A stretch of 64,000 bases of DNA from an uncultured bacterium. Lineage in GTDB: Bacteria; Babelota; Babeliae; Babelales; Vermiphilaceae. The stretch is from contig OY968764.1 in the NCBI GenBank assembly GCA_963695335.1, forward strand, positions 544,001-608,000, read 5' to 3'. Of the stretch, positions 2,028 to 59,688 are shown in pieces. Numbering within the stretch: position 1 is the first letter of the stretch; the number at the start of each line of letters is the position of its first letter. Both the position numbers and the translations under genes were made by a program. A model generated the notes under the pieces. It had not been told where the DNA came from, did no database searches, and saw nothing but the letters and a program-made list of their open reading frames with translations.

Positions 2028-2202
2028 CCCGCGCTCGTCCTGAGCTTGTCGAAGGATATCCTTGAGCGCATTTTTATAGTGATAATAAAATATAATAAAC
2101 TTTGTATTGCTAAGCAATGATTAAAAGGAAAACATTTTTGACTAAAAAAGAATAAGCGCGCTCAAAAGATACCCTTCGACAGGCTCAGGGCGAGCGCGGA
2201 AA
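2028..2202. repeat. Inverted pair of family-A palindromic repeats
   Basis: gcgctcgtcctgagcttgtcgaaggatatccttgagcgc (2031-2069) and its inverted copy gcgctcaaaagatacccttcgacaggctcagggcgagcgc (2158-2197). Confidence 0.9.
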
Positions 2203-5541: not shown

Positions 5542-7332
5542 TTAGAGATTATCTGAATGCGGTGCTGAAATGAGTTTATTTTGTAACTCCATTAAATCAC
5601 GCAATATCAGTGATATTTTATCTGCATTGCCTTCTTGTTTTGCTCGTGCTAGCTGTAGTTTGATGTCTCGTACGATTATTTTCCACTGTTGCTTTTGTAA
5701 TTGCTCAAGAAGCTTATCAAATGCAGTGCCATCTACGATTTCATTATTTTCAAGGAGTAATTTGCTAATATACTGTTTTTCGTATTCATTCAGTGTATCA
5801 AAAAAAAGACTAAAGGTAACCTTTTCAGTTTTTTCTTGGTTTTCCTTTAGCTTAATCAGAATATCTTTGAGGGGTGATGGGAGGTATTTTATCAGACGAA
5901 CCCTTATTTCCTCCTGCAACAGTTCCATATTGTTCATTATAGCACAAAAGATACGTTTTTCTAGCAAGGAGATAGTCTCTTCTCGCTCGTCCTGCGTGTC
6001 CGAAGAAGCCTTGCCTGCGCTTTGAAGCCTTGGCGAAAGAGGGGCGGAGTCGGAATCAGTTCTTCGCTCCAGCTCCTCCTTGAGCGATTCAAAGGGGATA
6101 TCAAAGGTCTTGGCAGCTTTTTGGAGTAAAATATCTTTTTTGAGTGGATCAGAGATAGCAGCAATCACTTCCAGAAATGATCGTGTTATTTGGATTTTTT
6201 GATTGAGTGGTTTACTGATAAAGTTTTGCCCGAGTGAATCAATAAAGAAGAAAAAGATATCTTGTGCGTTATTGATCAGATTTTGCATGTCCCCATTTTT
6301 GGCAAAGAATGATGCAGGATCATCTCCGTTGGGAAGTTGTAGAACTTTCAGTTCCAGGTTAACCTGCCAGCACAGTTCAGTAAGTCGTAAAACTGCTTGT
6401 TTGCCTGCTGCATCACCATCATAAACTATGTATATATGCTCTGCGTACCGCGCAAGTTGTTTAAGGTGTTCAATGGTACAGGCGGTGCCTAAAGTTGCAA
6501 CAGTATTCGGGATGCCTTGTTGAGTCATTGCCATGCAATCGGTATAACCTTCTACAAGAAAGATTTTTCCTGTTTCTTGAATGCTTTTTTTTGCTTTATC
6601 AAGATTAAAAAGTAACGAGCCTTTGATAAAATATTCATTTTCACGAGAGTTGTAATATTTTGGACGAGTATCATGATCTTTAAAAATACGTCCACCAAAT
6701 CCACAATGCCGGCCGAGTAAATCTTTAATGGGGAAAATAAGGCGTTCTTCAAAAGGGGAGTAGAGTGTTGTGCGGCCTTCAGCCAAAATGTGCGCATCAA
6801 TCAGATCGCGGGGTAATATTGATTGCTGTTTCATTGCATAGAGCAAATCGCTGATGCTTGCATTGCCACTTGGGAAATAACCCAGGGTAAAATAATTAAA
6901 ACTGTCTTGCCCAAAGCCGCGCTTGTTGAAATACGCTTGCGCTGATGGATTTTTGAGTAGTTGTTCATGGCACCAGAGCGCGACTGCTTTGCAGATGGCA
7001 AAATAATGATTTTTTTCCTCAGTATGCTTTTCTGAAAGCTCAAAAGAGATGTTTTGTGGCAGTTCAATACTATATTTTTCTGCCAACAGTTTTGCGGCAT
7101 CTTTTTGTGAGCAGTTTTCAATCTTTGCGATAAATGATATCGCATCGCCAGAAATGTGGCATCCAAAGCAGTAAAAGATATCTTTGTCTGGGCTTACGGT
7201 GAATGATGCAGTTTTTTCATGATGAAAAGGGCAGGTGCCTTTGTGGTATCCACCAGCTCGTCTGAGGGTCACGTATTCACTGACAACATCGAGGATTGCG
7301 ACACGGGCTTTGATGAAGGTAAATAAATTCAT
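5542..7332 (-). CDS. dnaG: DNA primase, with in-frame palindromic insert
   Basis: CPFHHEKTASF...YCFGC zinc finger, FGGR, PKYYNS, TOPRIM VEGYTD and YDGDAAG; upstream of rpoD. Confidence 0.97.
   Translation of the reverse strand: MNLFTFIKARVAILDVVSEYVTLRRAGGYHKGTCPFHHEKTASFTVSPDKDIFYCFGCHISGDAISFIAKIENCSQKDAAKLLAEKYSIELPQNISFELSEKHTEEKNHYFAICKAVALWCHEQLLKNPSAQAYFNKRGFGQDSFNYFTLGYFPSGNASISDLLYAMKQQSILPRDLIDAHILAEGRTTLYSPFEERLIFPIKDLLGRHCGFGGRIFKDHDTRPKYYNSRENEYFIKGSLLFNLDKAKKSIQETGKIFLVEGYTDCMAMTQQGIPNTVATLGTACTIEHLKQLARYAEHIYIVYDGDAAGKQAVLRLTELCWQVNLELKVLQLPNGDDPASFFAKNGDMQNLINNAQDIFFFFIDSLGQNFISKPLNQKIQITRSFLEVIAAISDPLKKDILLQKAAKTFDIPFESLKEELERRTDSDSAPLSPRLQSAGKASSDTQDEREETISLLEKRIFCAIMNNMELLQEEIRVRLIKYLPSPLKDILIKLKENQEKTEKVTFSLFFDTLNEYEKQYISKLLLENNEIVDGTAFDKLLEQLQKQQWKIIVRDIKLQLARAKQEGNADKISLILRDLMELQNKLISAPHSDNL
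5983..6054. repeat. Degenerate family-A/B composite inside dnaG
   Basis: cgctcgtcctgcgtgt...gaagccttggcgaaagaggg...; GC-rich island in an AT-rich gene. Confidence 0.7.
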
Positions 7333-13025: not shown

Positions 13026-13167
13026 TCCGCTCGCCCTGAGTGTTTTTGTCTTCAAAAATGTATCGAAGGGTTTGAGCGGCAAATTAATGATTTTAAATCT
13101 TTTTTATATTGCACCCTTCGATATATTTTACTACGTTTCACTTCGTAAAACACTCAGGGCGAGCGGG
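13026..13167. repeat. Inverted pair of family-A repeats with different central hairpins
   Basis: ccgctcgccctgagtgtttttgtcttcaaaaatgtatcgaaggg and cccttcgatatattttactacgtttcacttcgtaaaacactcagggcgagcgg. Confidence 0.92.
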
Positions 13168-15544: not shown

Positions 15545-15667
15545 CCCGCTCGCCCTGAGTGTTTTACGTAGCGTTAGCGCAGTAAAATGTATCGAAGGGT
15601 TTATCTTATCTGTTTTCCGCATCCTTCGATACATTTTTGAAGACAAAAACACTCAGGACGAGCGGAA
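15545..15667. repeat. Inverted pair of family-A repeats
   Basis: ccgctcgccctgagtgttttacgtagcgttagcgcagtaaaatgtatcgaaggg / atccttcgatacatttttgaagacaaaaacactcaggacgagcgg. Confidence 0.92.
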
Positions 15668-16600: not shown

Positions 16601-17665
16601 ATGATATACCATTTATCGTTTTATTTAAAGCAGTATTGGCCGTTTTTCAATGTTCTGCACTATGTAAGTGTGCGTGCAGTGGCCTCTTTGCTCAGTTCTT
16701 TAGCCACTTTTTTGATGTTTGGACCATTTTTTATGGCGATTTCACGTCGCTTTTTCCGTTCTAAGGCCAGAGAATTCACGCCAGAGGCTCATAAAAAGAA
16801 AGATAGCATGCCAACTATGGGTGGGGTGTTTATTTTAGCCATTATGCTTTTAAACACGCTTCTGTGGTGCGATTTAAGCAATACAAAGGTCTGGATATTC
16901 CTGTTTTGTACCCTGGGGTTTGGAATGGTTGGTTTTTGGGATGATTGGAGCAAGATTTCGAGCGATAGGGGCATTTCTGCTTTGACAAAATTGCAATTTC
17001 AGGTTTTTATAGCAACAATTTCAGCCTTTCTTCTTGTTTTTTGGGGTTCTTGTGGTACCCAGGTAGTTTTTCCGTTTTTTAAGCATCTGAGTCCAAATTT
17101 GGGTCTTTTTTTTATCCCTTGGATTGTTTTTATTATTATAGGTTGTAGCAACGCAGTCAATCTGACCGATGGGCTTGATGGTCTTGCGATTGGGTCATTG
17201 CTGCCCAATTTTACTATATTTTCCCTTATTTGTTACTTGGCGGGCCATTTTGGGCTTGCATTATATTTGAATATTCCCTTTGCAGGCACATCTGAAATAG
17301 CTATTATTGGAGCCATTTTGATAGGTTCTTCTTTAGGTTTTTTGTGGTACAATACATATCCAGCGCAAATTTTTATGGGAGATGTGGGATCGCTGGCTTT
17401 GGGGGCAGGGCTTTCTTTAATGGCGATTATGGCAAAGCAGGAGCTTTTATTACCTATTGCTGGCGGACTTTTTGTGGTAGAAACAATCTCTGTGATACTC
17501 CAAGTGCTTTCTGTGCGGTATTTGGGAAAAAGAATGTTTAAGATGGCTCCTATTCATCATCACTTTGAACTGCTTGGGTGGCCAGAATCACGCATCACTA
17601 CCCGTTTTGGCATTATCTCTTTGGTATTATGCCTGCTGACGCTTATTACACTAAAATTGCGATAA
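16601..17665 (+). CDS. mraY: Phospho-N-acetylmuramoyl-pentapeptide transferase
   Basis: PTMGG, GFWDD, NAVNLTDGLDGLA, FMGDVGSL, MAPIHHHFE. Confidence 0.98.
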   Translation: MIYHLSFYLKQYWPFFNVLHYVSVRAVASLLSSLATFLMFGPFFMAISRRFFRSKAREFTPEAHKKKDSMPTMGGVFILAIMLLNTLLWCDLSNTKVWIFLFCTLGFGMVGFWDDWSKISSDRGISALTKLQFQVFIATISAFLLVFWGSCGTQVVFPFFKHLSPNLGLFFIPWIVFIIIGCSNAVNLTDGLDGLAIGSLLPNFTIFSLICYLAGHFGLALYLNIPFAGTSEIAIIGAILIGSSLGFLWYNTYPAQIFMGDVGSLALGAGLSLMAIMAKQELLLPIAGGLFVVETISVILQVLSVRYLGKRMFKMAPIHHHFELLGWPESRITTRFGIISLVLCLLTLITLKLR

Positions 17666-17694
17666 ATTATATTCAAACAATAAAAGGATCATTG

Positions 17695-18303
17695 ATGATT
17701 ACATCTCGTGTGGTACTACTTGCGGTATTATTGGGTAATTGTGTGGTTGTGAGTATGGAAAGTGTACAGAAGCAAGAGATAAGTGTACAGAATGTATTAG
17801 ATACCATAATAGAGTCTCAGTTTCAACGTAAGTTGAGCGATACGGCTTTAGTTGAATTATATCTTTATACTGGTGGCAATATCAATGCGAAAGGAACTAT
17901 ATTTGTCAGTTCAGGTTGGCAAGATATAAAAGGAGCAAATTTACTTATGGTATCTGTATTTTATGATCGTCCAAAGTTGATGAAATTTTTAATTGGTAAA
18001 TATGCGAGATTAGATTGCAAAAATGAATTTGGTGATACGGCATTAATTATGGCAGCAATGACCGGGCGTGCAGCTTTGGTAAGGATTTTATTGGATGCTG
18101 GTGCAGACAAAAATATACGCAATAACGGTGGTAGGACGGCATTAGATGAAGCATATAATTCTCCATGGCGCTATAATTCTTTTTATAATAATAAGGATCG
18201 TAAAATTTATAATTTTCCAATAATGATTAGACTTCTTGAGCATCCTAATCAAAAGAAGGTTCAATATTACAAGCAAATTGATAATATTAAAAATCATTCT
18301 TAA
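17695..18303 (+). CDS. Ankyrin-repeat secreted protein
   Basis: Start at MITSRVVLLAV (AAGGA RBS); GDTALIMAA, GADKNIRNNGGRTAL. Confidence 0.85.
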   Translation: MITSRVVLLAVLLGNCVVVSMESVQKQEISVQNVLDTIIESQFQRKLSDTALVELYLYTGGNINAKGTIFVSSGWQDIKGANLLMVSVFYDRPKLMKFLIGKYARLDCKNEFGDTALIMAAMTGRAALVRILLDAGADKNIRNNGGRTALDEAYNSPWRYNSFYNNKDRKIYNFPIMIRLLEHPNQKKVQYYKQIDNIKNHS

Positions 18304-18410
18304 TTCATATATTGAGCTATTAAAGTGCCAAAATGTGTAATATACATGTTTTGGCATTATTTTTTTTGTGATATGCTTATTGCCGTTTATGATATAAAAA
18401 TTGCGATAAA
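18304..18410 (+). pseudogene. Decayed duplicate of the mraY 3' end
   Basis: 18345-18409 aligns gaplessly with 17601-17665 at 49/65 nt. Confidence 0.8.
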
Positions 18411-18430
18411 TCAATACAATAACAAAAAGG

Positions 18431-19600
18431 ATGATGCATATGTTGTATGCTTTGTTGATGGCAATGATGGTGAGTAGCGGTGTAGTGTTTGGCATGGAAA
18501 AAGAAAAAGAAAGTAGGCAAGTATTGATTGCAAGGCTTGGCGATCAGCCCAATGGAATTTGGGCCGGAGAATATCAAAAGCAGGGTTGGACCATTGAGCA
18601 AGCATTGGAAGATCATAGAACAGAGAATCCATCATTTTATGAGCTTTCTGTCCGAACGGATTATGAGCTTACATCTATTATAGAAAACGCAAGTAGTATG
18701 TTCGAGAGCATTGCTCCAAAAATGAGAGAGTTAGCATGCAAAGATAAATATTGGAAAAAACTTTTAGATAAGGCATATAATACAGAACCTTTGTTGTATA
18801 AGATTAATCGTAGTTTAACGAATTATGCAAAGTATAAAAATGGTTTTGATATGTCTGTGCGCAATGAAGGTCTCTATATTTATTTGGAGATAGCCGCAGC
18901 GCTTTTGGGTACTCCAGGAGCAATTGAATTTGGAAGAGGGTATATTCAACAAGATTCTGCAAAAACAAGATTGAAAAATTTTGTGTTTGGGGTTGTAGAA
19001 TACGGAGATAGTCGACCACATTCTTGTGAAATGATGCTCTCATGGCCGGATGAAGATTTGGATGTGGTGAGAGCTGCTTTAGATATGGGGCTTGAGCCTG
19101 ATATGGTGAGTAATGCTCATGGTTGGACTTCTGAGGGCGTGCCTCTTTTAATAGTTGCTGCAAAGGCTAATAAAGTAAAGGTGGTTGAACTATTGCTTGA
19201 TCGTGGAGCTGATAAAGAAACTAAATACGCGTTTGAAACAGAATATACTCATGATTCTTATGGAAAGGTGCCAAAGTATGTTCGAAGTTATACAGCTTTG
19301 CACGCAGCAGTAGAACGTAAATGCCAAGCTGTGATTGATTTGTTGATAGAGCGAAAAGCTGATATTAACGCTGTTGATAATTTTGGCAGAACTCCGTTGA
19401 TAGTGGCTGCAAAAGATGGATATATGGAAACGGTGGAAAAATTACTTGCGGCTGGCGCTGATAAATCTATAAAAGATGCATTTGATAAATATGCGATCGA
19501 TTATGCAGCAGAAGGCTTACAGAATGAAAAGTTATCAGTTGAAAAACGAGCTGCATATGAGAAAATAACGTATATGTCTTTGTTAAAAGATGTGAAATAG
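18431..19600 (+). CDS. Ankyrin-repeat secreted protein
   Basis: TALHAAV, GRTPLIVAA, GADKSIKD; FG-MEKE leader. Confidence 0.9.
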   Translation: MMHMLYALLMAMMVSSGVVFGMEKEKESRQVLIARLGDQPNGIWAGEYQKQGWTIEQALEDHRTENPSFYELSVRTDYELTSIIENASSMFESIAPKMRELACKDKYWKKLLDKAYNTEPLLYKINRSLTNYAKYKNGFDMSVRNEGLYIYLEIAAALLGTPGAIEFGRGYIQQDSAKTRLKNFVFGVVEYGDSRPHSCEMMLSWPDEDLDVVRAALDMGLEPDMVSNAHGWTSEGVPLLIVAAKANKVKVVELLLDRGADKETKYAFETEYTHDSYGKVPKYVRSYTALHAAVERKCQAVIDLLIERKADINAVDNFGRTPLIVAAKDGYMETVEKLLAAGADKSIKDAFDKYAIDYAAEGLQNEKLSVEKRAAYEKITYMSLLKDVK

Positions 19601-20049: not shown

Positions 20050-21348
20050 CTAATCCTTTTTTTGTTGGTTTGATATTCCAAACATAATAGTACCGAGTGC
20101 TATTATTCCACAAAATATATAGAGTGGTAGTGGATTATTGGTTTTCCACATTGCAACAAGAGATGCACTCATTAAAATTGCGCAGTTAATGAATCCTAAA
20201 ATTGGTAAAGTTATTGCATGACCTTTTTTATACAACGTTGCACAAAGACCCGCAATACTCATAGCATAGGTCATTGTTGTTCCAAACGCACTCAGTTGCT
20301 GAAATGTTGTTTGTGCATCGAGTATGAATAGATATGTGAGCATAATTGCGCCTTGGGCAACTACACAGATGAATGGAATATCAAAGCGGTTGTGTTGCAT
20401 AATAGTTGCAGGAGCAATGGTGTGGTGTTGTTCAGCAAGCGTGTATAGATTCCATATATTGGCGTAAATAATACCAAATGCTGCGCTGAGAGCAGAAACG
20501 GCAATAGAAAGATGGATAAAATGTCCAAGAAAATTTCTGAAATGGTTGCTGATGTTAAATTTGCTGATCAGTAACGGGAATGCGCCGCTATAATTGGATG
20601 TTTGTGCAAGATCTGCGCCCAATATTGCATAAAAAAATCCTTGATACAGCATATAAATAATAATCACAATACCGTAAGAAATTAAAATTGAACGTGGGCC
20701 ATCAACTTCAGGGTTTTTAAGATTACGGCTAATTGCGCATGCAACTTCAAAACCAAGCAGTGCGTGGAGTACCAAAGGAATTGCTGATGGAATGCCTTCC
20801 CACAGTTGATTGATGGGAGTTAAATTATCATTGTTGAGCAGTAAAAATCCTGATGCTATGACCAAGAATAGTGGGAATGTTTTTAAGATCATTAACCACC
20901 CTTGAATTCTACTGCCTGTTCTGACATTAAGCATGTTGAGTGCTAATAAGATTGATAACACTGCTATGTCAAAAATCAGTGGGCTCACACATGTGAGTGC
21001 CGGAAATGTTTTTTGCATGAGTAGGGTGAAAATATGAATCGCTAAAGTTCCTGAAGAGAGTTTTGCAAAAAAATAACACCAAGTACTCAAAAAACCCACG
21101 AGTGGATGAATTGATGTGCTACAAAATGCATAAAATCCGCCACTTGGATACAGCTGTAACAGTTTTACAAAAGATAAAATGAGTGGGAACAGGAGTAGGC
21201 CAACAATGATGTAGCATAATCCGCCGAGTAAGCCTGCACGTTTTGCAAGTTCTGTTGTGTTAATAAAAACGCCGGTGCCGATGATGATGTTGAGGTTGAT
21301 GATCACGGCTGACCATAATGAGAGATGGTTGTTTGTTGTTGTCGACAT
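20050..21348 (-). CDS. APC-family amino acid permease
   Basis: IIGTGVF, GGFY, GFE, ~12 hydrophobic segments. Confidence 0.9.
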   Translation of the reverse strand: MSTTTNNHLSLWSAVIINLNIIIGTGVFINTTELAKRAGLLGGLCYIIVGLLLFPLILSFVKLLQLYPSGGFYAFCSTSIHPLVGFLSTWCYFFAKLSSGTLAIHIFTLLMQKTFPALTCVSPLIFDIAVLSILLALNMLNVRTGSRIQGWLMILKTFPLFLVIASGFLLLNNDNLTPINQLWEGIPSAIPLVLHALLGFEVACAISRNLKNPEVDGPRSILISYGIVIIIYMLYQGFFYAILGADLAQTSNYSGAFPLLISKFNISNHFRNFLGHFIHLSIAVSALSAAFGIIYANIWNLYTLAEQHHTIAPATIMQHNRFDIPFICVVAQGAIMLTYLFILDAQTTFQQLSAFGTTMTYAMSIAGLCATLYKKGHAITLPILGFINCAILMSASLVAMWKTNNPLPLYIFCGIIALGTIMFGISNQQKKD

Positions 21349-21382: not shown

Positions 21383-21520
21383 TCCGCTCGCCCTGATCCT
21401 TAGATACACCACTCGCGTGGCACTCAGGATGAGCGGAAGAGACGTTTCTATTGCTTACTCCGCTCGCCCTGAGTGTTCTTCGTAGCTTTAGCGAAGAAGA
21501 ATGTATCGAAGGGTGCGGAG
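21383..21520. repeat. Cluster of three family-A copies downstream of the GIY-YIG gene
   Basis: Truncated forward arm 21383-21396, reverse copy 21397-21436, forward copy with B core 21459-21520 abutting the stop codon. Confidence 0.9.
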
Positions 21521-21808
21521 TTAATTAAAATTTTTCTTTGCTAATAATGAAAGTTTATTAAAGTTTTCTTCAATTAAAGCTTCTTTTTTTTGTCTATTCC
21601 ATTTTTTTATCTGGCGTTCAGCATTAAATGCTTCATCTCGTGATCCAAAAGATTGTATGAATACAACTTCAATTGGTAATCGTTTAGAAGTATAACATTT
21701 ATATTCATTTGAGTTATGTTCGGCTATTCGTTTTTCAATATTATCAGTATGTCCAACATAATAAGATGCGTCATTACATTTCAGAATATAAACGTAGAAA
21801 TCATTCAT
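21521..21808 (-). CDS. GIY-YIG nuclease (UPF0213/YhbQ-like)
   Basis: YVYILKC..SYYVGHT..EKRIAEHN..YT..RLP..EAFNAERQIKKW.RQKKEALI; catalytic Tyr/Arg/Glu positions present. Confidence 0.93.
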   Translation of the reverse strand: MNDFYVYILKCNDASYYVGHTDNIEKRIAEHNSNEYKCYTSKRLPIEVVFIQSFGSRDEAFNAERQIKKWNRQKKEALIEENFNKLSLLAKKNFN

Positions 21809-21825
21809 TTACGACTTTCTGTGTT

Positions 21826-22031
21826 TCCGCACCCTTCGATACGTTTTTTGAAGACAAAAAACACTCAGGGCGAGCGGGTTTGCCGCTTTATTTTTCTTTT
21901 TTTTTGTTGATCCTGAATGCTTTGTCTTGCAAATGTATCAAATGATTAGAATGTTTTTTTACCTACTCCGCTCGCCCTGAGTGTTTTACGTAGCGTTAGC
22001 GTAGTAAAATGTATCGAAGGGTGCGAACGGA
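21826..22031. repeat. Cluster of family-A copies upstream of the GIY-YIG gene
   Basis: Reverse copy 21826-21878, degenerate forward copy ~21909-21945, forward copy 21967-22031. Confidence 0.9.
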
Positions 22032-22040
22032 AGATTTTTA

Positions 22041-22790
22041 TTATTGTTGCTGTGCAGCCAAATAAAGCGCGATAGATCCCGCAACAGCTGCATTTAAACT
22101 TTCAAAGTTTCCTGGCATAGGAATTGTAATTTTCTCATCACATTGTTCTACCCACTCTTGTGGAATGCCATGGCTTTCACTGCCAACAACAATAAGTGCT
22201 TCTTGTAAGTTAACCCTGTTAGGATCTTTTCCTTCTGATGGCATAAGTGCATACAAAGGAATATCGTTTTTATTGAGTATGAGTTCTTGCCAGTTGAGGC
22301 GGAAGATGGAAATATTGGCAATAGCGCCCGCAGTTGCTTGAATAACTTTTGGATTCCATGGATCAACCGTTTCCACACATACAACTGTTTTTTGATTCAT
22401 TGCAGCAGCAGTTCTGATTAATGTCCCCATGTTGCCAGGATCAGTAACACGCGCAAGAACAACACCAGAACCTAAAGTAGTAAGTGAGGGATTTTGAGGA
22501 ATTTTAAATGTTGCAAGTAATCCGCTTGGCGATTGTGCGGTGCTTATTTTATCCATAATTTCTGGTGATACAACAATAATTTTTTTATCATCAACAAGTT
22601 GTTGTGCATCGTATAAAAATTCATCAACCGTGAATAAAGTTATTGGTTGATGACCGGCCTTAATGATAGTAGAAATGGTACGGAAACCTTCTGCGATAAA
22701 TTCTTGTAATTCTGCACGGTGTTTTGCGATGTGCAAGGTAACAACGTGTTTGATGATTGGATTAGCGGGAGAAATTATACTTTTTATCAT
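22041..22790 (-). CDS. TrmH/SpoU family RNA methyltransferase
   Basis: DPGNMGTLIRTA, VGSESHG, IPMPGNFESLNAAVA. Confidence 0.95.
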   Translation of the reverse strand: MIKSIISPANPIIKHVVTLHIAKHRAELQEFIAEGFRTISTIIKAGHQPITLFTVDEFLYDAQQLVDDKKIIVVSPEIMDKISTAQSPSGLLATFKIPQNPSLTTLGSGVVLARVTDPGNMGTLIRTAAAMNQKTVVCVETVDPWNPKVIQATAGAIANISIFRLNWQELILNKNDIPLYALMPSEGKDPNRVNLQEALIVVGSESHGIPQEWVEQCDEKITIPMPGNFESLNAAVAGSIALYLAAQQQ

Positions 22791-22806: not shown

Positions 22807-22891
22807 GTTCGTATGTTTCGACAAGCTCAACACGAACGGGATTAAAATTACTTATTCCGTTCGCCCTGAGCCCTGTCGAAGGGTACGAACG
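22807..22891. repeat. Pair of family-A variant repeats (cgttcg arms)
   Basis: gttcgtatgtttcgacaagctcaacacgaacgg and ccgttcgccctgagccctgtcgaagggtacgaac. Confidence 0.85.
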
Positions 22892-24126: not shown

Positions 24127-24849
24127 TCAGAGATTTGAACTGGAATCAGCTTCAGTCGCAGTGTTACTATAATTTGATGTTGCACTGTAGGGTATATATG
24201 TTACTCTGTGCCATTGTAATTCTTTGCCTAATTCATCGATGCATCTCAGGCAAGGCCGTTCTGCGCCTATGAGATGTTTAGTGAGACCACAATGCTTTTT
24301 GTTGAAAATGATATCATTATATTTTGTTCTGATAGCTTGAGTCATTACTCTCACACATTCTTGATATCGCATTGTAGTGTCGTAGCTATTTCCTGGGGTA
24401 TCGAGTAGTCTTGCCGCAAAATCTAAAGGAGTTTCTAAAATGGGGTTTTCTGCAAAAGTTGCTCCCAAGTCATGACATGGAACCAAATCGACATTGGCAT
24501 TTGTGAGAGTACATAGTGCTATGTAATTTTTTTCTTGTATTGCATAATGTAATAAGCTGAGGTTTTTGTGATAACGATTTGGGTTAAATGTATGATCAAG
24601 ACATAGCTCTAAACAGTTTGTATTGTTAAAGAGTATACAAGTTTTAAGCATTTGATACTGTAGATTTGGATGGATACTGTTTACATCATGTTTTTTTAAA
24701 AATTTTCTTAATTTTTTATAATTACGATCAGCCCTAAACGCAAGCAGTTGTTTAAGCCCTTCCTCTTGGCCTTCTGGCTCCATGCAAAAGGTGCTACTGG
24801 TCATCATTGCTATCGTTGCACAAATAATTGTAAAAATTTTGTTGTTCAT
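24127..24849 (-). CDS. Ankyrin-repeat secreted protein with Cys/His C-terminal motif
   Basis: LSLLHYAI, ETPLDFAA, KHCGLTKH..PCLRC. Confidence 0.8.
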   Translation of the reverse strand: MNNKIFTIICATIAMMTSSTFCMEPEGQEEGLKQLLAFRADRNYKKLRKFLKKHDVNSIHPNLQYQMLKTCILFNNTNCLELCLDHTFNPNRYHKNLSLLHYAIQEKNYIALCTLTNANVDLVPCHDLGATFAENPILETPLDFAARLLDTPGNSYDTTMRYQECVRVMTQAIRTKYNDIIFNKKHCGLTKHLIGAERPCLRCIDELGKELQWHRVTYIPYSATSNYSNTATEADSSSNL

Positions 24850-24854
24850 AGGTA

Positions 24855-25514
24855 TTAAATCTGTAGTTGCGAATCTATGATAACTTTTTCAAGATCCGCC
24901 TTTGTTATGCAAGGATTCAATAAACCATAACATTGTAATTGCCAGCTTAATTCTTCTCTGCACTTTTCACATGGACCTGATTTTAGGATGTGTTTGGTGA
25001 GCCCACAATGTTTGTTATATATCGCAAGTTGGTTGTATTTTCTACTAATGACTTTAGCCATTGCATTGGTGCAATCTTCGCATTGTAAATTGGCTGCATA
25101 ATCGAGAGGAGTTTCTTCCTGTTCGTTAAGTGGAGTTAAATCAGGATTATACCTTGATAATATAGTAATAGCCTTAGGTTTATGATGTTTAATAGCGCAA
25201 TGCAATAGACTTAATTTTTTGTGATAGCGATTTGGATTGAATTTGTATTCAAGACAGAGAGTTAGTCGTTCCATATCATTTTCTTTTATGCAGGTTTTGA
25301 GTATATCATATTGGAACTCAGGTGAAATGGCATTGTATTCGATGCCATTTGTTGTTGTAATGTGACTTTCTAAAAGAAGTTTTAAGTTTTTATGAGGATC
25401 TTTTGCCTTGGCAGTGTATTTTGTAAGAGCAGTTCGATTATTCTGCTCCATGCAAAAATTATAATTGCTAGCGATCATTAATAGAGAAATAATTATAATT
25501 CTTCTTTGTTTCAT
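24855..25514 (-). CDS. Ankyrin-repeat secreted protein, paralogue of 24127-24849
   Basis: FNPNRYHKKLSLLHCAI, ETPLDYAA, KHCGLTKH..PCEKC. Confidence 0.8.
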   Translation of the reverse strand: MKQRRIIIISLLMIASNYNFCMEQNNRTALTKYTAKAKDPHKNLKLLLESHITTTNGIEYNAISPEFQYDILKTCIKENDMERLTLCLEYKFNPNRYHKKLSLLHCAIKHHKPKAITILSRYNPDLTPLNEQEETPLDYAANLQCEDCTNAMAKVISRKYNQLAIYNKHCGLTKHILKSGPCEKCREELSWQLQCYGLLNPCITKADLEKVIIDSQLQI

Positions 25515-29868: not shown

Positions 29869-30425
29869 TTTAATTATACGTTCGTTAATAACCTGTGCAT
29901 TAGCCAAGCTATATTATTGATGACATTATGTGGCACAGTTGATGGAGCACTTTGTTGGTCTTTGTGTATAAAATACAAGAGATATATAGTGATTGGTTTG
30001 TAATATTCCATCAAGAACTTTCTATACAATTCACCATCAGAGCATTTTTTAAAGTAAAAATTAACACATTCATAGCTTTGGGGATTTTTTTTAAGATAGT
30101 TAAAAACGGTTGTTATTGCGATGAGTACAGCATTGCTTCGTGGAAAGCCAACATCTGCACTCAGTGTGGGAAAGTCTATATTTTTTGTACAATCTAAGGT
30201 TGCTCCTAAGGTGAGGCATTGTTTATAACAAAAAATTAAATCTTTTGAAGCTTCTTCAATTGCCTGATCGCTCGTAAATTCTCCATTTTGGTAATAGCCT
30301 TTTTTGTGTTTGCATGCTCTGCGTACTTTGTATATGGGATGGTTTTGCGGTCCTATGATGCGTGGTTCTTCAACACGCATAAAAATACTTTTTTCCTTGT
30401 CAGTAGTATATCGTGTGGTGTTTAT

Positions 30426-30990
30426 TTAATTGAGCAGAAAACCCTGGCTTTTCAAAGCCAGGGATGAATGCGAGTCAAAATGGAGGCGATGGAGCAATGC
30501 AGTTATAGTAATTGCGAAGAGCCGGCTCTTTAGGCATACTAAAAAACATGGGTAAATATTGGTGTGGATCTCAAACAAAGCACAGACTTATGTATCATTT
30601 AGTATGGATTCCAAAATATAGAAAGAGAGTATTAAAAGGAGAGATAGCAGAAAGAATAAAAGATCTATTGTATGAATGCGCAGATTTGCAAAGATGGAAA
30701 ATAGAAGAGCTAAACATTCAATTAGATCATGTTCATATGTTAGTTCAAATGAATCCAGATGTAAGCGTGAGCAGGATGGTACAATTGTTTAAAGGAATGA
30801 CCAGTAAAGTTGTGCGCGAAGAATTTCCAGAATTAAAAGAGTTTTTGTGGGGTAAAAGTTTTTGGTCAGATGGGTATTTTGCAGAAACAAGTGGTCAGGT
30901 AAACGAAGATCGCATACGAGAATACATCCGAAATCAGTAGAATATATCCTAAAAAGCGAAGCGGGGGCTTTTAAGCCCCCTGTTTTTCAC
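30426..30990 (+). mobile_element. IS200-type insertion sequence (tnpA only), 565 bp
   Basis: Left hairpin ccctggctt-ttca-aagccaggg, right hairpin gggggctt-tt-aagccccc, preceded by TTTAT, ends TCAC, no TSD; boundary can slide by 2 nt. Confidence 0.93.
30548..30940 (+). CDS. tnpA: IS200/IS605 Y1 HUH transposase
   Basis: YHLVWIPKYRK, DHVHML, FWSDGYF, EYIRNQ. Confidence 0.97.
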   Translation: MGKYWCGSQTKHRLMYHLVWIPKYRKRVLKGEIAERIKDLLYECADLQRWKIEELNIQLDHVHMLVQMNPDVSVSRMVQLFKGMTSKVVREEFPELKEFLWGKSFWSDGYFAETSGQVNEDRIREYIRNQ

Positions 30991-38877: not shown

Positions 38878-39066
38878 CGTTCGTATATTTCGACCCAGCC
38901 TTCGCCAAGGCTTCGGCGGGCAGGCGGGCGTTTACTACTGAGCAAAGTCGAAGTATCAATACGAATGGAAGAAAAAATTATTAATCAGTTTAATCCCCAT
39001 TTTCAGTTCTTTCCGATGGGGACCCCGATTGGAACGAAGTGGAAATTGGGGCAAAAGGATACGAAC
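38878..39066. repeat. Composite A/B element followed by family-C double hairpin
   Basis: 38889-38958 matches pheT 37879-37948 at 68/70 nt; C module at 38995-39051. Confidence 0.92.
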
Positions 39067-43402: not shown

Positions 43403-43533
43403 TGCGCTCGTCCTGAGCCTGTCGAAGGATTTCTTCGAGCGCTCGAAAGATATCCTTTTACCCCAATATCACTCCGTTCGTATTGGGGACCCCATCGGAA
43501 GGAACTGAAGATGGGGAATAGCTGACGAGCGCA
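43403..43533. repeat. Family-A inverted pair, second copy carrying a family-C module
   Basis: gcgctcgtcctgagcctgtcgaaggat, palindromic spacer ttcgagcgctcgaa, then tatcctt[ccccaata..ttggggaccccatc..gatgggg]tgacgagcgc. Confidence 0.88.
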
Positions 43534-45348: not shown

Positions 45349-46167
45349 TCATTTTCTAATCTCCAACAATGCCGGATCATTCGTGATAATTGGCTCCAGT
45401 GGAATTTGTGGTCGTGGAGCCAAAGGTGATAAATATGGTGTATAAAAATAGTATGGGCGTTGTAATTTAAGTAAAATTTTTAATCCAAACCATACGCCAA
45501 ATATTGGTGGCACCCACCAATATTTTTTTAACCAATTTTTCCACGTAATTTTTGAATTCAATTCATACTTTTCTATAAATGGTGGTAGCTCATTGACCAG
45601 CATATCTATTGCGCTTAAAACTTCTGCAATTGGCAACTGATTAATGATATTGTTGATTGCAATAATTGTTTCGAGCGTTGATTTTTTTATTGGATGGTGA
45701 TGTTGCGCGCATTCATCAAAAAGAATGTGTTTGTGAACAGCAAAAATAAGAATGAGTGTTTCGTGTAAGAAGTGGCTGCTCTGCGCATTAATGTTGTGCT
45801 GAGTGTATTGGAGCAATAGAATAATTGGTTTAAGCGATTCGGCGGCGATTGCTTGTTTAAGACTGTTACATATGGTCGGATGAGAAAAAGTAACTGGTCC
45901 CAGTTGTATGGAATCTGCTTGTTCAGTGATATTGCATGGAGCATAATGATACTGTTGTTTATGTAAGCGTGATAAAAAGTTGATAGATTTTGTAAGGCAT
46001 GGAATGCAGTAAGTATGTTTTTTTAATCCGCTTAACCCTTCGATACATTTTTGCTTTGCAAAAACACTCAGGGCGAGCGGAAAGGATAAAGCATTTTCTT
46101 TTAAGGGGACCCCCGATTGTAATGAAATGAAAATTGGGGCAATAGTAATTGTTATTACTTTTTTCAT
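45349..46167 (-). CDS. Hypothetical membrane protein; 5' region contains repeats in frame
   Basis: 272 aa, C-terminal TM (WWVPPIFGVWFGL), CAGG RBS. Confidence 0.65.
   Translation of the reverse strand: MKKVITITIAPIFISLQSGVPLKENALSFPLALSVFAKQKCIEGLSGLKKHTYCIPCLTKSINFLSRLHKQQYHYAPCNITEQADSIQLGPVTFSHPTICNSLKQAIAAESLKPIILLLQYTQHNINAQSSHFLHETLILIFAVHKHILFDECAQHHHPIKKSTLETIIAINNIINQLPIAEVLSAIDMLVNELPPFIEKYELNSKITWKNWLKKYWWVPPIFGVWFGLKILLKLQRPYYFYTPYLSPLAPRPQIPLEPIITNDPALLEIRK
46028..46140. repeat. Family-A copy plus half family-C module inside ORF 45349-46167
   Basis: cccttcgatacatttttgctttgcaaaaacactcagggcgagcgg; ggggacccccgattgtaatgaaatgaaaattgggg. Confidence 0.88.
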
Positions 46168-58645: not shown

Positions 58646-58823
58646 TCCGCATACCCTTCGATACGTTTTTGAAGACAAAAACACTCAGGGCGAGCGGAGA
58701 AAACAATGTTTAGTCGGTTTAGAGTAAGAGTGCTTATCCCCGCTCGCTTAACCCCATCTTCAGTTCCTTCCGACGGGGACCCCGATTGGAACGAAGTGAA
58801 AATTGGGGATAAAAGAGTGCGGA
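58646..58823. repeat. Family-A pair, second copy carrying a family-C module
   Basis: Reverse A 58646-58698; ccgctcgc[ttaaccccatc..cggggaccccgatt..aattggggataaa]agagtgcgga. Confidence 0.9.
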
Positions 58824-59536: not shown

Positions 59537-59688
59537 CGTTCGCTCATTTTTATCCCCAATTTCCACTTCATTCCAATCGGGGTCCCCGTCGAAATGAAAT
59601 GAAGATGGGGTTAAACAAGCTCAATGCGAACGGAAAGAAAAATTTTATTGTTCCCCGTTCGTGCTGAGCCTGTCGAAGCATACGAACG
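59537..59688. repeat. Family-A variant pair, first copy carrying a family-C module
   Basis: cgttcg..ccccaatt..atcggggtccccgtc..gatggggttaaacaagctcaatgcgaacgg; ccgttcgtgctgagcctgtcgaagcatacgaacg. Confidence 0.9.

Follow-up and report, generated by a model that had tools for sequence, protein, structure and literature searches.

Between the genes for an APC amino-acid permease and a TrmH/SpoU methylase, the window (the whole 64-kb stretch of DNA analysed here) holds a 0.4-kb cassette, in which two copies of a genome-wide hairpin repeat (family A; Table 1) flank one GIY-YIG nuclease gene and point toward it. Both flanking arms turn their TCGAAGGG tail to the nuclease gene and their CCGCTC head outward. 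The initial annotation had described a 95-aa GIY-YIG gene between inverted family-A copies, and this layout is confirmed, with small corrections given below. The downstream arm directly abuts the stop codon, and 17 nt separate the upstream arm from the ATG. Four further heads or copies are found within 230 nt around the locus, as had been stated, and the cluster that had been called the densest in the window is the densest of the whole 1.37-Mb genome, with five heads in 650 nt. No family-A copy was visible just upstream of trmH in nine relatives. Secreted-looking ankyrin-repeat genes and paralogous hypothetical genes, typical of the lineage, occupy positions 17578-19600 and 24127-25514 of the window.

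Table 1. Features of the nuclease locus and gene-less repeat pairs (window positions)
Feature	Positions	Strand	Basis
Gene-less tails-in pair, short-loop subtype, 117-nt spacer	2030..2198		Repeat pattern
Gene-less tails-in pair, long subtype, short arm and long arm as in the cassette	13026..13167		Repeat pattern, arm comparison
Gene-less tails-in pair, long subtype, long arm and short arm	15545..15667		Repeat pattern, arm comparison
APC amino-acid permease, downstream neighbour	20050..21348	-	Domain match; comparison with relatives
Outer fused element, two opposed heads	21383..21441		Similar element after the G008 and G003 cassettes, at unrelated loci
Downstream arm, long-loop copy with long inner stem, tail abutting the stop codon	21459..21520	+	Sequence and repeat pattern
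GIY-YIG nuclease gene, single-domain, 95 aa, predicted YhbQ/UPF0213 branch	21521..21808	-	PF01541 match, invariant residues, trees, structure
Upstream arm, long-loop copy with short inner stem, tag outward, tail toward the ATG	21826..21878	-	Sequence and repeat pattern
Decayed copy, head gone	21909..21947	+	Sequence reading
Full long-loop copy, tail toward the trmH stop	21967..22031	+	Sequence and repeat pattern
trmH/SpoU methylase, upstream neighbour	22041..22790	-	Domain match; direct neighbour of the permease gene in 6 of 9 relatives
Two short-loop copies, heads inward, at the tgt-trmH junction	22808..22890		Repeat pattern
Short-loop pair, second arm broken by a different, GGGGACCCC-core repeat	43403..43533		Sequence

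The family-A unit consists of a CGYTC tag, a 5-bp stem, two opposed GA dinucleotides (GA/GA), one closing pair and then either a 5-nt loop (short subtype) or an inserted second stem (long subtype); the tag is able to pair with the tail. Stem positions 2-4 are paired in 98-99% of 179 short copies compared with 52-79% after shuffling; the copies were picked on tag, GA and spacing only, with no pairing criterion, and since they are related to each other they do not represent independent events. Their closing pair is G-C in 109 cases and A-T in 67. The same stem pairing (92-96%) is seen in 96 copies from metagenome loci, and the GA/GA element probably forms sheared pairs. Folding energies (-13.4 and -12.5 kcal/mol) were dropped as evidence, because they come from nearest-neighbour DNA folding without a model for the GA/GA pair.

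Genome-wide mapping revealed 287 heads (14 in a Markov-simulated genome) and 225 exact pattern matches (none for a reversed control pattern). The 219 full copies comprise 75 of the long-loop subtype that flanks the nuclease, 74 and 44 of two short-loop subtypes, and 26 others. Where two neighbouring copies lie no more than 400 nt apart, the pair is tails-in in 44 cases, heads-in in 15 and tandem in 5. The window itself has 21 heads at no more than one mismatch; about 25 copies had been announced there, and decayed copies may account for the difference. Chance or assembly artefact as the origin of these patterns is ruled out by the simulated and reversed controls, by the junctions of relatives and by the metagenome loci. 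No credible Rfam match was found within the window. Some family-A copies lie in frame within long ORFs, like Rickettsia RPEs (window positions 5984-6030; G000:C1:847432-848712, 149054-151516 and 701191-702369, G000 being the present genome), including two in dprA; many of the 38 assignments of copies to the inside of an ORF are upstream ORF extensions only. A second palindromic family with a GGGGACCCC core has 62 core matches genome-wide, both strands counted, and is often nested inside family-A copies (window positions 38995-39059, 43461-43525, 46083-46147, 58752-58816 and 59555-59619); no partner enzyme was seen for it.

The 95-aa ORF contains one domain, GIY-YIG (PF01541, E 3e-19), in a protein of less than 150 aa, and it has no NCBIfam match above the cut-off. 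Residues Y7, Y17, G19, R27, H31 and E64 are invariant in an alignment of 28 homologues, and comparison with the orthologue in G002 (dN 0.04, dS 0.57, dN/dS 0.07) indicates that purifying selection acts on the gene. The nearest named relatives of the protein belong to Candidatus Babeliales. By sequence as well as by fold (Foldseek), the closest solved structures are the UPF0213 (YhbQ/YazA) proteins 1zg2 and 1ywl, followed by Slx1; the best sequence match is 1zg2 (E 6e-15), and UPF0213 proteins top the Foldseek list for the predicted structure (pLDDT 90). The nuclease groups with E. coli YhbQ in a quick tree (SH-aLRT 96) and in a careful tree of 29 rows (87/93), both with only about 100 columns and with YhbQ as a long branch and the sole canonical UPF0213 member; on the clade profile YhbQ scores 57 bits, as against 157 for the query. 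By these tests, the nuclease appears to belong with YhbQ/UPF0213 and to lie outside the Ssn clade. Unlike the gene described here, E. coli yhbQ is surrounded by ordinary genes, and the annotation shows no repeat there.

The nuclease gene is single-copy in this genome, which also encodes uvrC and two further small GIY-YIG genes of the Slx1-like type. Slx1-like-branch genes at G000:C1:205097-205345, which comes after an apparent tRNA gene, and at 895110-895370 carry a hairpin of a different family on the upstream side only, and the corresponding genes of relatives also have similar repeats upstream. This branch and its hairpins possibly constitute a third nuclease-hairpin pairing.

The present locus alone is indecisive for a link between nuclease and repeat, because 10 of the 1255 ORFs of this genome, the neighbouring trmH among them, are bracketed by inward-pointing copies in the same way. 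Cross-genome data, unlike the single locus, establish the link. A profile of the nuclease clade identified 29 loci in 16 of 41 genomes, these 16 being Babeliales, and 25 of the 29 genes are bracketed on both sides; of the remainder, two have a downstream copy only, one runs into a contig end and one is truncated. An independent set of metagenome loci (80, of which 7 were dropped for short flanks; GC 0.31-0.68) gave a strict motif match on both sides in 36 of 73 cases, on one side in 14 and on neither in 23, so that at least one side matched in 50, while each of 20 shuffles produced no both-sided match. The tag and the GA/GA core accompany the nuclease into high-GC genomes; 86 tags from the metagenome loci read CGTTC in 65 cases, CGCTC in 14 and otherwise in 7, with CGGTC and CAGTC at a few loci. 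Within a cassette, one arm is often nearly identical to the other, and exact inverted matches reach 101 nt. Among viral contigs just one distant locus was found.

The genome-level association is in the same direction, with a median of 73.5 repeats in the 16 gene-positive genomes versus 2 in the 25 gene-negative ones, and all eight genomes with more than 60 copies carry the nuclease gene; this test overstates the link, because seven of these eight belong to one genus. Outside that genus, the medians are 18 with the gene and 2 without it (p 0.03). Eight of the 25 gene-negative genomes still have 9-53 copies, and three gene-positive genomes have merely 2-6. A test for co-variation of nuclease clade and flanking repeat had also been suggested. 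At the loci, each protein subgroup does go with its own hairpin subtype, as judged by eye, which may reflect simple co-inheritance; within genomes the correspondence fails, as there are 44 and 74 short-subtype copies here next to a long-subtype nuclease only, and 92 long-subtype copies in G004, where only a short-subtype gene was found.

Comparison of relatives revealed that the cassette changes its site. The tgt-trmH-permease order is kept in all nine relatives of the genus with a trmH match, and the trmH-permease junction, where the initial annotation had proposed to look for empty sites, is empty in six of them and holds gene-less repeats in three. The nuclease is present at this junction in G000 and G002 only; G005 is empty despite belonging to the same clade (100/100). 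Over about 59 nt, the copy at the G004 junction matches the downstream arm of the present genome exactly, although trmH is only 69% identical. Of 25 loci in relatives, 13 cassettes map to 12 other junctions, both neighbours of which are adjacent in the present genome with no nuclease between them; the remaining loci are unmappable or correspond to the trmH-permease site. Three of the 13 cassettes lie between genes that overlap in the present genome, in which gene-less repeats occupy four of the 12 junctions. The number of nuclease copies per genome ranges from 0 to 4, some of them with internal stops. Filled and empty versions of the same sites, the insertion polymorphism expected of IS elements and MITEs, are therefore observed. 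Synonymous divergence from G002 (locus L001) is 0.57 for the nuclease and 1.26 for the adjacent permease; on these few sites, it is possible that the cassette was exchanged later than its surroundings.

Target-site duplication was rejected as a rule, since direct repeats around gene-less copies show no excess over cross-pair controls (5.6 nt for a copy's own flanks, 5.7 nt across pairs); symmetric duplications of 11 and 9 bp, located 6-8 nt outside the tags at two of 23 cassettes, are a hint only. Among the sequencing runs listed in a search, none exceeded 9% of words and none was an RNA run; contigs of diverged relatives were obtained, with no clean excision joint.

The initial annotation had listed four cargo-free pairs with the geometry of the cassette. 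Two of them (13026-13167 and 15545-15667) are indeed long-loop pairs like the flanks of the gene; the other two are different, one being a short-loop pair (2028-2202) and one having an interrupted arm (43403-43533). Genome-wide, a short arm is paired with a long one, as in the cassette, in 15 of 16 gene-less pairs of the long subtype, about half being expected by chance, although this make-up is variable, as the upstream arm of the G002 orthologue is long. The common pair with a 24-nt spacer resembles a join of both inner GAGCGC ends of the short-subtype cassette, and one such pair occupies a junction where G009 carries a short-subtype cassette. Neither tblastn nor the clade profile detected remnants of the nuclease in the spacers, and no inverted repeat was seen extending outward from gene-less pairs, as it does at several cassettes. 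The proposal that such pairs derive from cassettes thus agrees with their arms and finds no coding remnants; because of the latter, the derivation is drawn from the likeness of arms and inner flanks only. Judged in this way, gene-less tails-in pairs have likely arisen by deletion or have been copied from pairs that did.

The statement that there is no characterised GIY-YIG-driven REP system overlooked Ssn and its NTS repeat (Chenal et al. 2025, PMC11893778), for which the same layout, sequence-specific cleavage of single-stranded DNA and a proposed repeat expansion have been described. According to that work, SsnA (94 aa) binds its tagged hairpin as single-stranded DNA only, cuts a few bases upstream and requires Y6, Y17 and E64; it lowers integration of transforming DNA, and the role demonstrated in Neisseria is restriction of transforming DNA, not repeat spread. 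Related motifs flank the Ssn homologues. In the authors' proposal, the system is a domesticated REP/RAYT-like element through which the repeats expanded, an expansion that the available portions of the paper present as a hypothesis only. The present system resembles Ssn (cd10448) and NTS/SRM (PMC11893778) in a single-domain GIY-YIG protein of about 95 aa, in hundreds of dispersed copies, and in a gene flanked on both sides with the tag outward and the tail toward the gene, an orientation shared by the NTS-flanked genes that we compared. The catalytic Tyr, Tyr and Glu are matched by Y7, Y17 and E64 in alignment with NTS-flanked proteins.

Other properties set the two systems apart. The query nuclease falls outside the clade of Ssn-type proteins (96/89), and an Ssn-type profile gives the query 71 bits versus 117-143 for left-out members; the clade was represented by proxy, through five NTS-flanked proteins (two from cd10448-positive genomes, PMC11893778 Data 4) and other Ssn-like proteins, with SsnA itself absent. 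The hairpin here has a CGYTC tag, the opposed GA/GA and an optional second stem. The published SRM motif has no match in the genome and none beside any of the clade homologues tested; the motif is narrow, as it also misses most Ssn-like Bacteroidota loci. In these loci (L027-L072), the hairpins that flank the Ssn-like genes carry a GTCATT tag and contain internal GA mismatches; since they escape the SRM motif, the range of Ssn repeats is wider than that motif. Movement from site to site is seen here by comparison, and no such analysis was found in the available part of PMC11893778. By analogy, the present system probably works in an Ssn-like way, on a separate GIY-YIG branch and with a different hairpin, and by these tests it is not a member of Ssn.

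Similarities extend to the CGTC-tagged REP superfamily (Di Nocera et al. 2013, PMC3733652), which is reported, in the available sections of that paper, without a dedicated transposase. Shared features are an unpaired-type tag, about 8 stem positions, a 5-nt loop (short subtype), dimers and some copies inside genes. Unlike those repeats, in which the tag is CGTC, TGTC or CCTC (PMC3733652), family A has CGYTC with one extra base, a conserved GA/GA mismatch and a tag that can pair with the tail. An 8-9-bp stem with a 4-5-nt loop is described for CGTC-tagged REPs (PMC3733652); the short subtype of family A has 5 bp, the opposed GA/GA, 1 bp and a 5-nt loop, and the long subtype has a second stem instead. 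CGTC-tagged REPs form mostly head-to-head dimers (PMC3733652), and the pairs counted above are mostly tails-in; the head and tail conventions may differ between the two descriptions. REP/REPIN systems with a RAYT (REPtrons; PMC2817692, PMC3116915) similarly have one enzyme gene bracketed by a dispersed palindrome as well as inverted pairs with short spacers; RAYTs are typically single-copy (PMC5581495). Unlike in REPtrons, there is no HUH/Y1 domain between the repeats and no GTAG tag, and the gene varies in site and copy number. A full-text literature search turned up neither a UPF0213-branch nuclease associated with repeats of this kind nor an account of the present repeats in Babeliales, and no publication that connects the UPF0213 group with repeats; subscription journals were largely outside this search.

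With modest confidence, we lean toward an enzyme that acts like SsnA, nicking its own hairpin in single-stranded DNA outside the tags, with host repair copying hairpins, pairs and cassettes. By analogy with SsnA, the nuclease would bind the hairpin sequence-specifically in single-stranded DNA and cut a few bases 5' of the CGYTC tag; because the tags point outward, such cuts would fall just outside both ends of the cassette, on opposite strands. That the nick drives the spreading of repeats is the weakest step of the scheme, with less support than binding and cutting. A lone GIY-YIG domain is hydrolytic and is not known to join DNA. Because the domain itself would not join strands, copying would depend on recombination by the host or on template switching; this would also explain the near-identical arms at each locus, and repair of the nicks would carry hairpins, gene-less pairs and occasionally a whole cassette to new sites. 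That the enzyme is an autonomous mobiliser, as initially proposed, is put in doubt by the lack of a general target-site duplication, by the 9-53 copies in eight of 25 gene-negative genomes and by the hydrolytic nature of the domain.

A wider proposition, which we regard as tentative, is that the predicted YhbQ-branch nuclease, by nicking its own GA/GA hairpin in single-stranded DNA, is the engine of a transposase-free mobile element family and spreads both its own gene and REP-like repeats by the hundreds in many bacterial lineages. With Ssn and the third, Slx1-like branch, it would represent the missing mobilisers of "orphan" CGTC-type REPs, each branch with its own hairpin code.

The nuclease might instead be a domesticated restriction enzyme for single-stranded DNA, as SsnA is, that cuts transforming DNA at the hairpins on entry and modulates gene exchange, with the repeats multiplying by a process that it does not drive. 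The Neisseria precedent (PMC11893778) argues for this, as do the presence of ComEC and DprA, the low dN/dS and the single copy here. We nevertheless consider it unlikely: 10-11 of 14 control genomes likewise have ComEC and DprA; unlike a housekeeping gene, the nuclease gene has a patchy distribution (25 of 41 genomes yielded none), reaches four copies at unrelated sites and is often broken; and its bracketing would be left unexplained.

It is less probable still that another enzyme (an IS110 recombinase, an IS200/RAYT-type HUH transposase or one since lost) spreads the repeats and that the nuclease is cargo or a squatter in a repeat pair. Repeats do persist in nuclease-free genomes, and three identical 1.19-kb IS110 copies (G000:C1 near 689797, 1208179 and 1354341) lie at the same position inside a short-subtype repeat, from which we conclude that IS110 uses this repeat as a target; however, each splits a single repeat, with no bracketing pair around it in this genome. 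The three Y1 genes here are near-identical IS200 copies with their own ends (terminal hairpins; one at about 30330-30960 of the window) and have no family-A head within 1 kb, so that the earlier claim of no RAYT tied to the repeat holds for this genome. Among 23 Y1 loci examined in relatives (26 fetched), two do lie between family-A copies, but both genes are 200 nt or more from the heads, one having its own long inverted repeats (L351, G038:C16:21645-22502) and the other being one copy of a multi-copy IS. Furthermore, 31 of 41 genomes yielded no Y1 gene, among them G008 and G009, which have more than 200 repeats, and the tag and GA/GA core track the nuclease into high-GC genomes. A DUF559 nuclease was not found in this genome.

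Least probable is a structure-specific Slx1/YhbQ-like repair nuclease that resolves repeat cruciforms without reading sequence: the closest structures (UPF0213, then Slx1), the grouping with YhbQ and the assignment of YhbQ to the Slx1 family by a review (PMC7017083) are compatible with it, but the invariant tag, fixed orientation, subgroup-specific hairpins and changing sites would be unexplained, and YhbQ itself is on a long branch with a far lower score on the clade profile.

The nuclease-hairpin layout as such has already been published for Ssn. What is new is that it also occurs on a second branch of GIY-YIG proteins, with a different hairpin, and that there is comparative evidence for movement: the same junctions are seen filled, with repeats only or empty, and gene-less pairs resemble deletion products. 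How REP-type repeats multiply without a RAYT was posed as an open question in PMC3733652. If the SsnA-like action of the enzyme proposed here is true, it would provide a function for part of the UPF0213 group and could yield site-specific single-strand DNA nucleases with new specificities.
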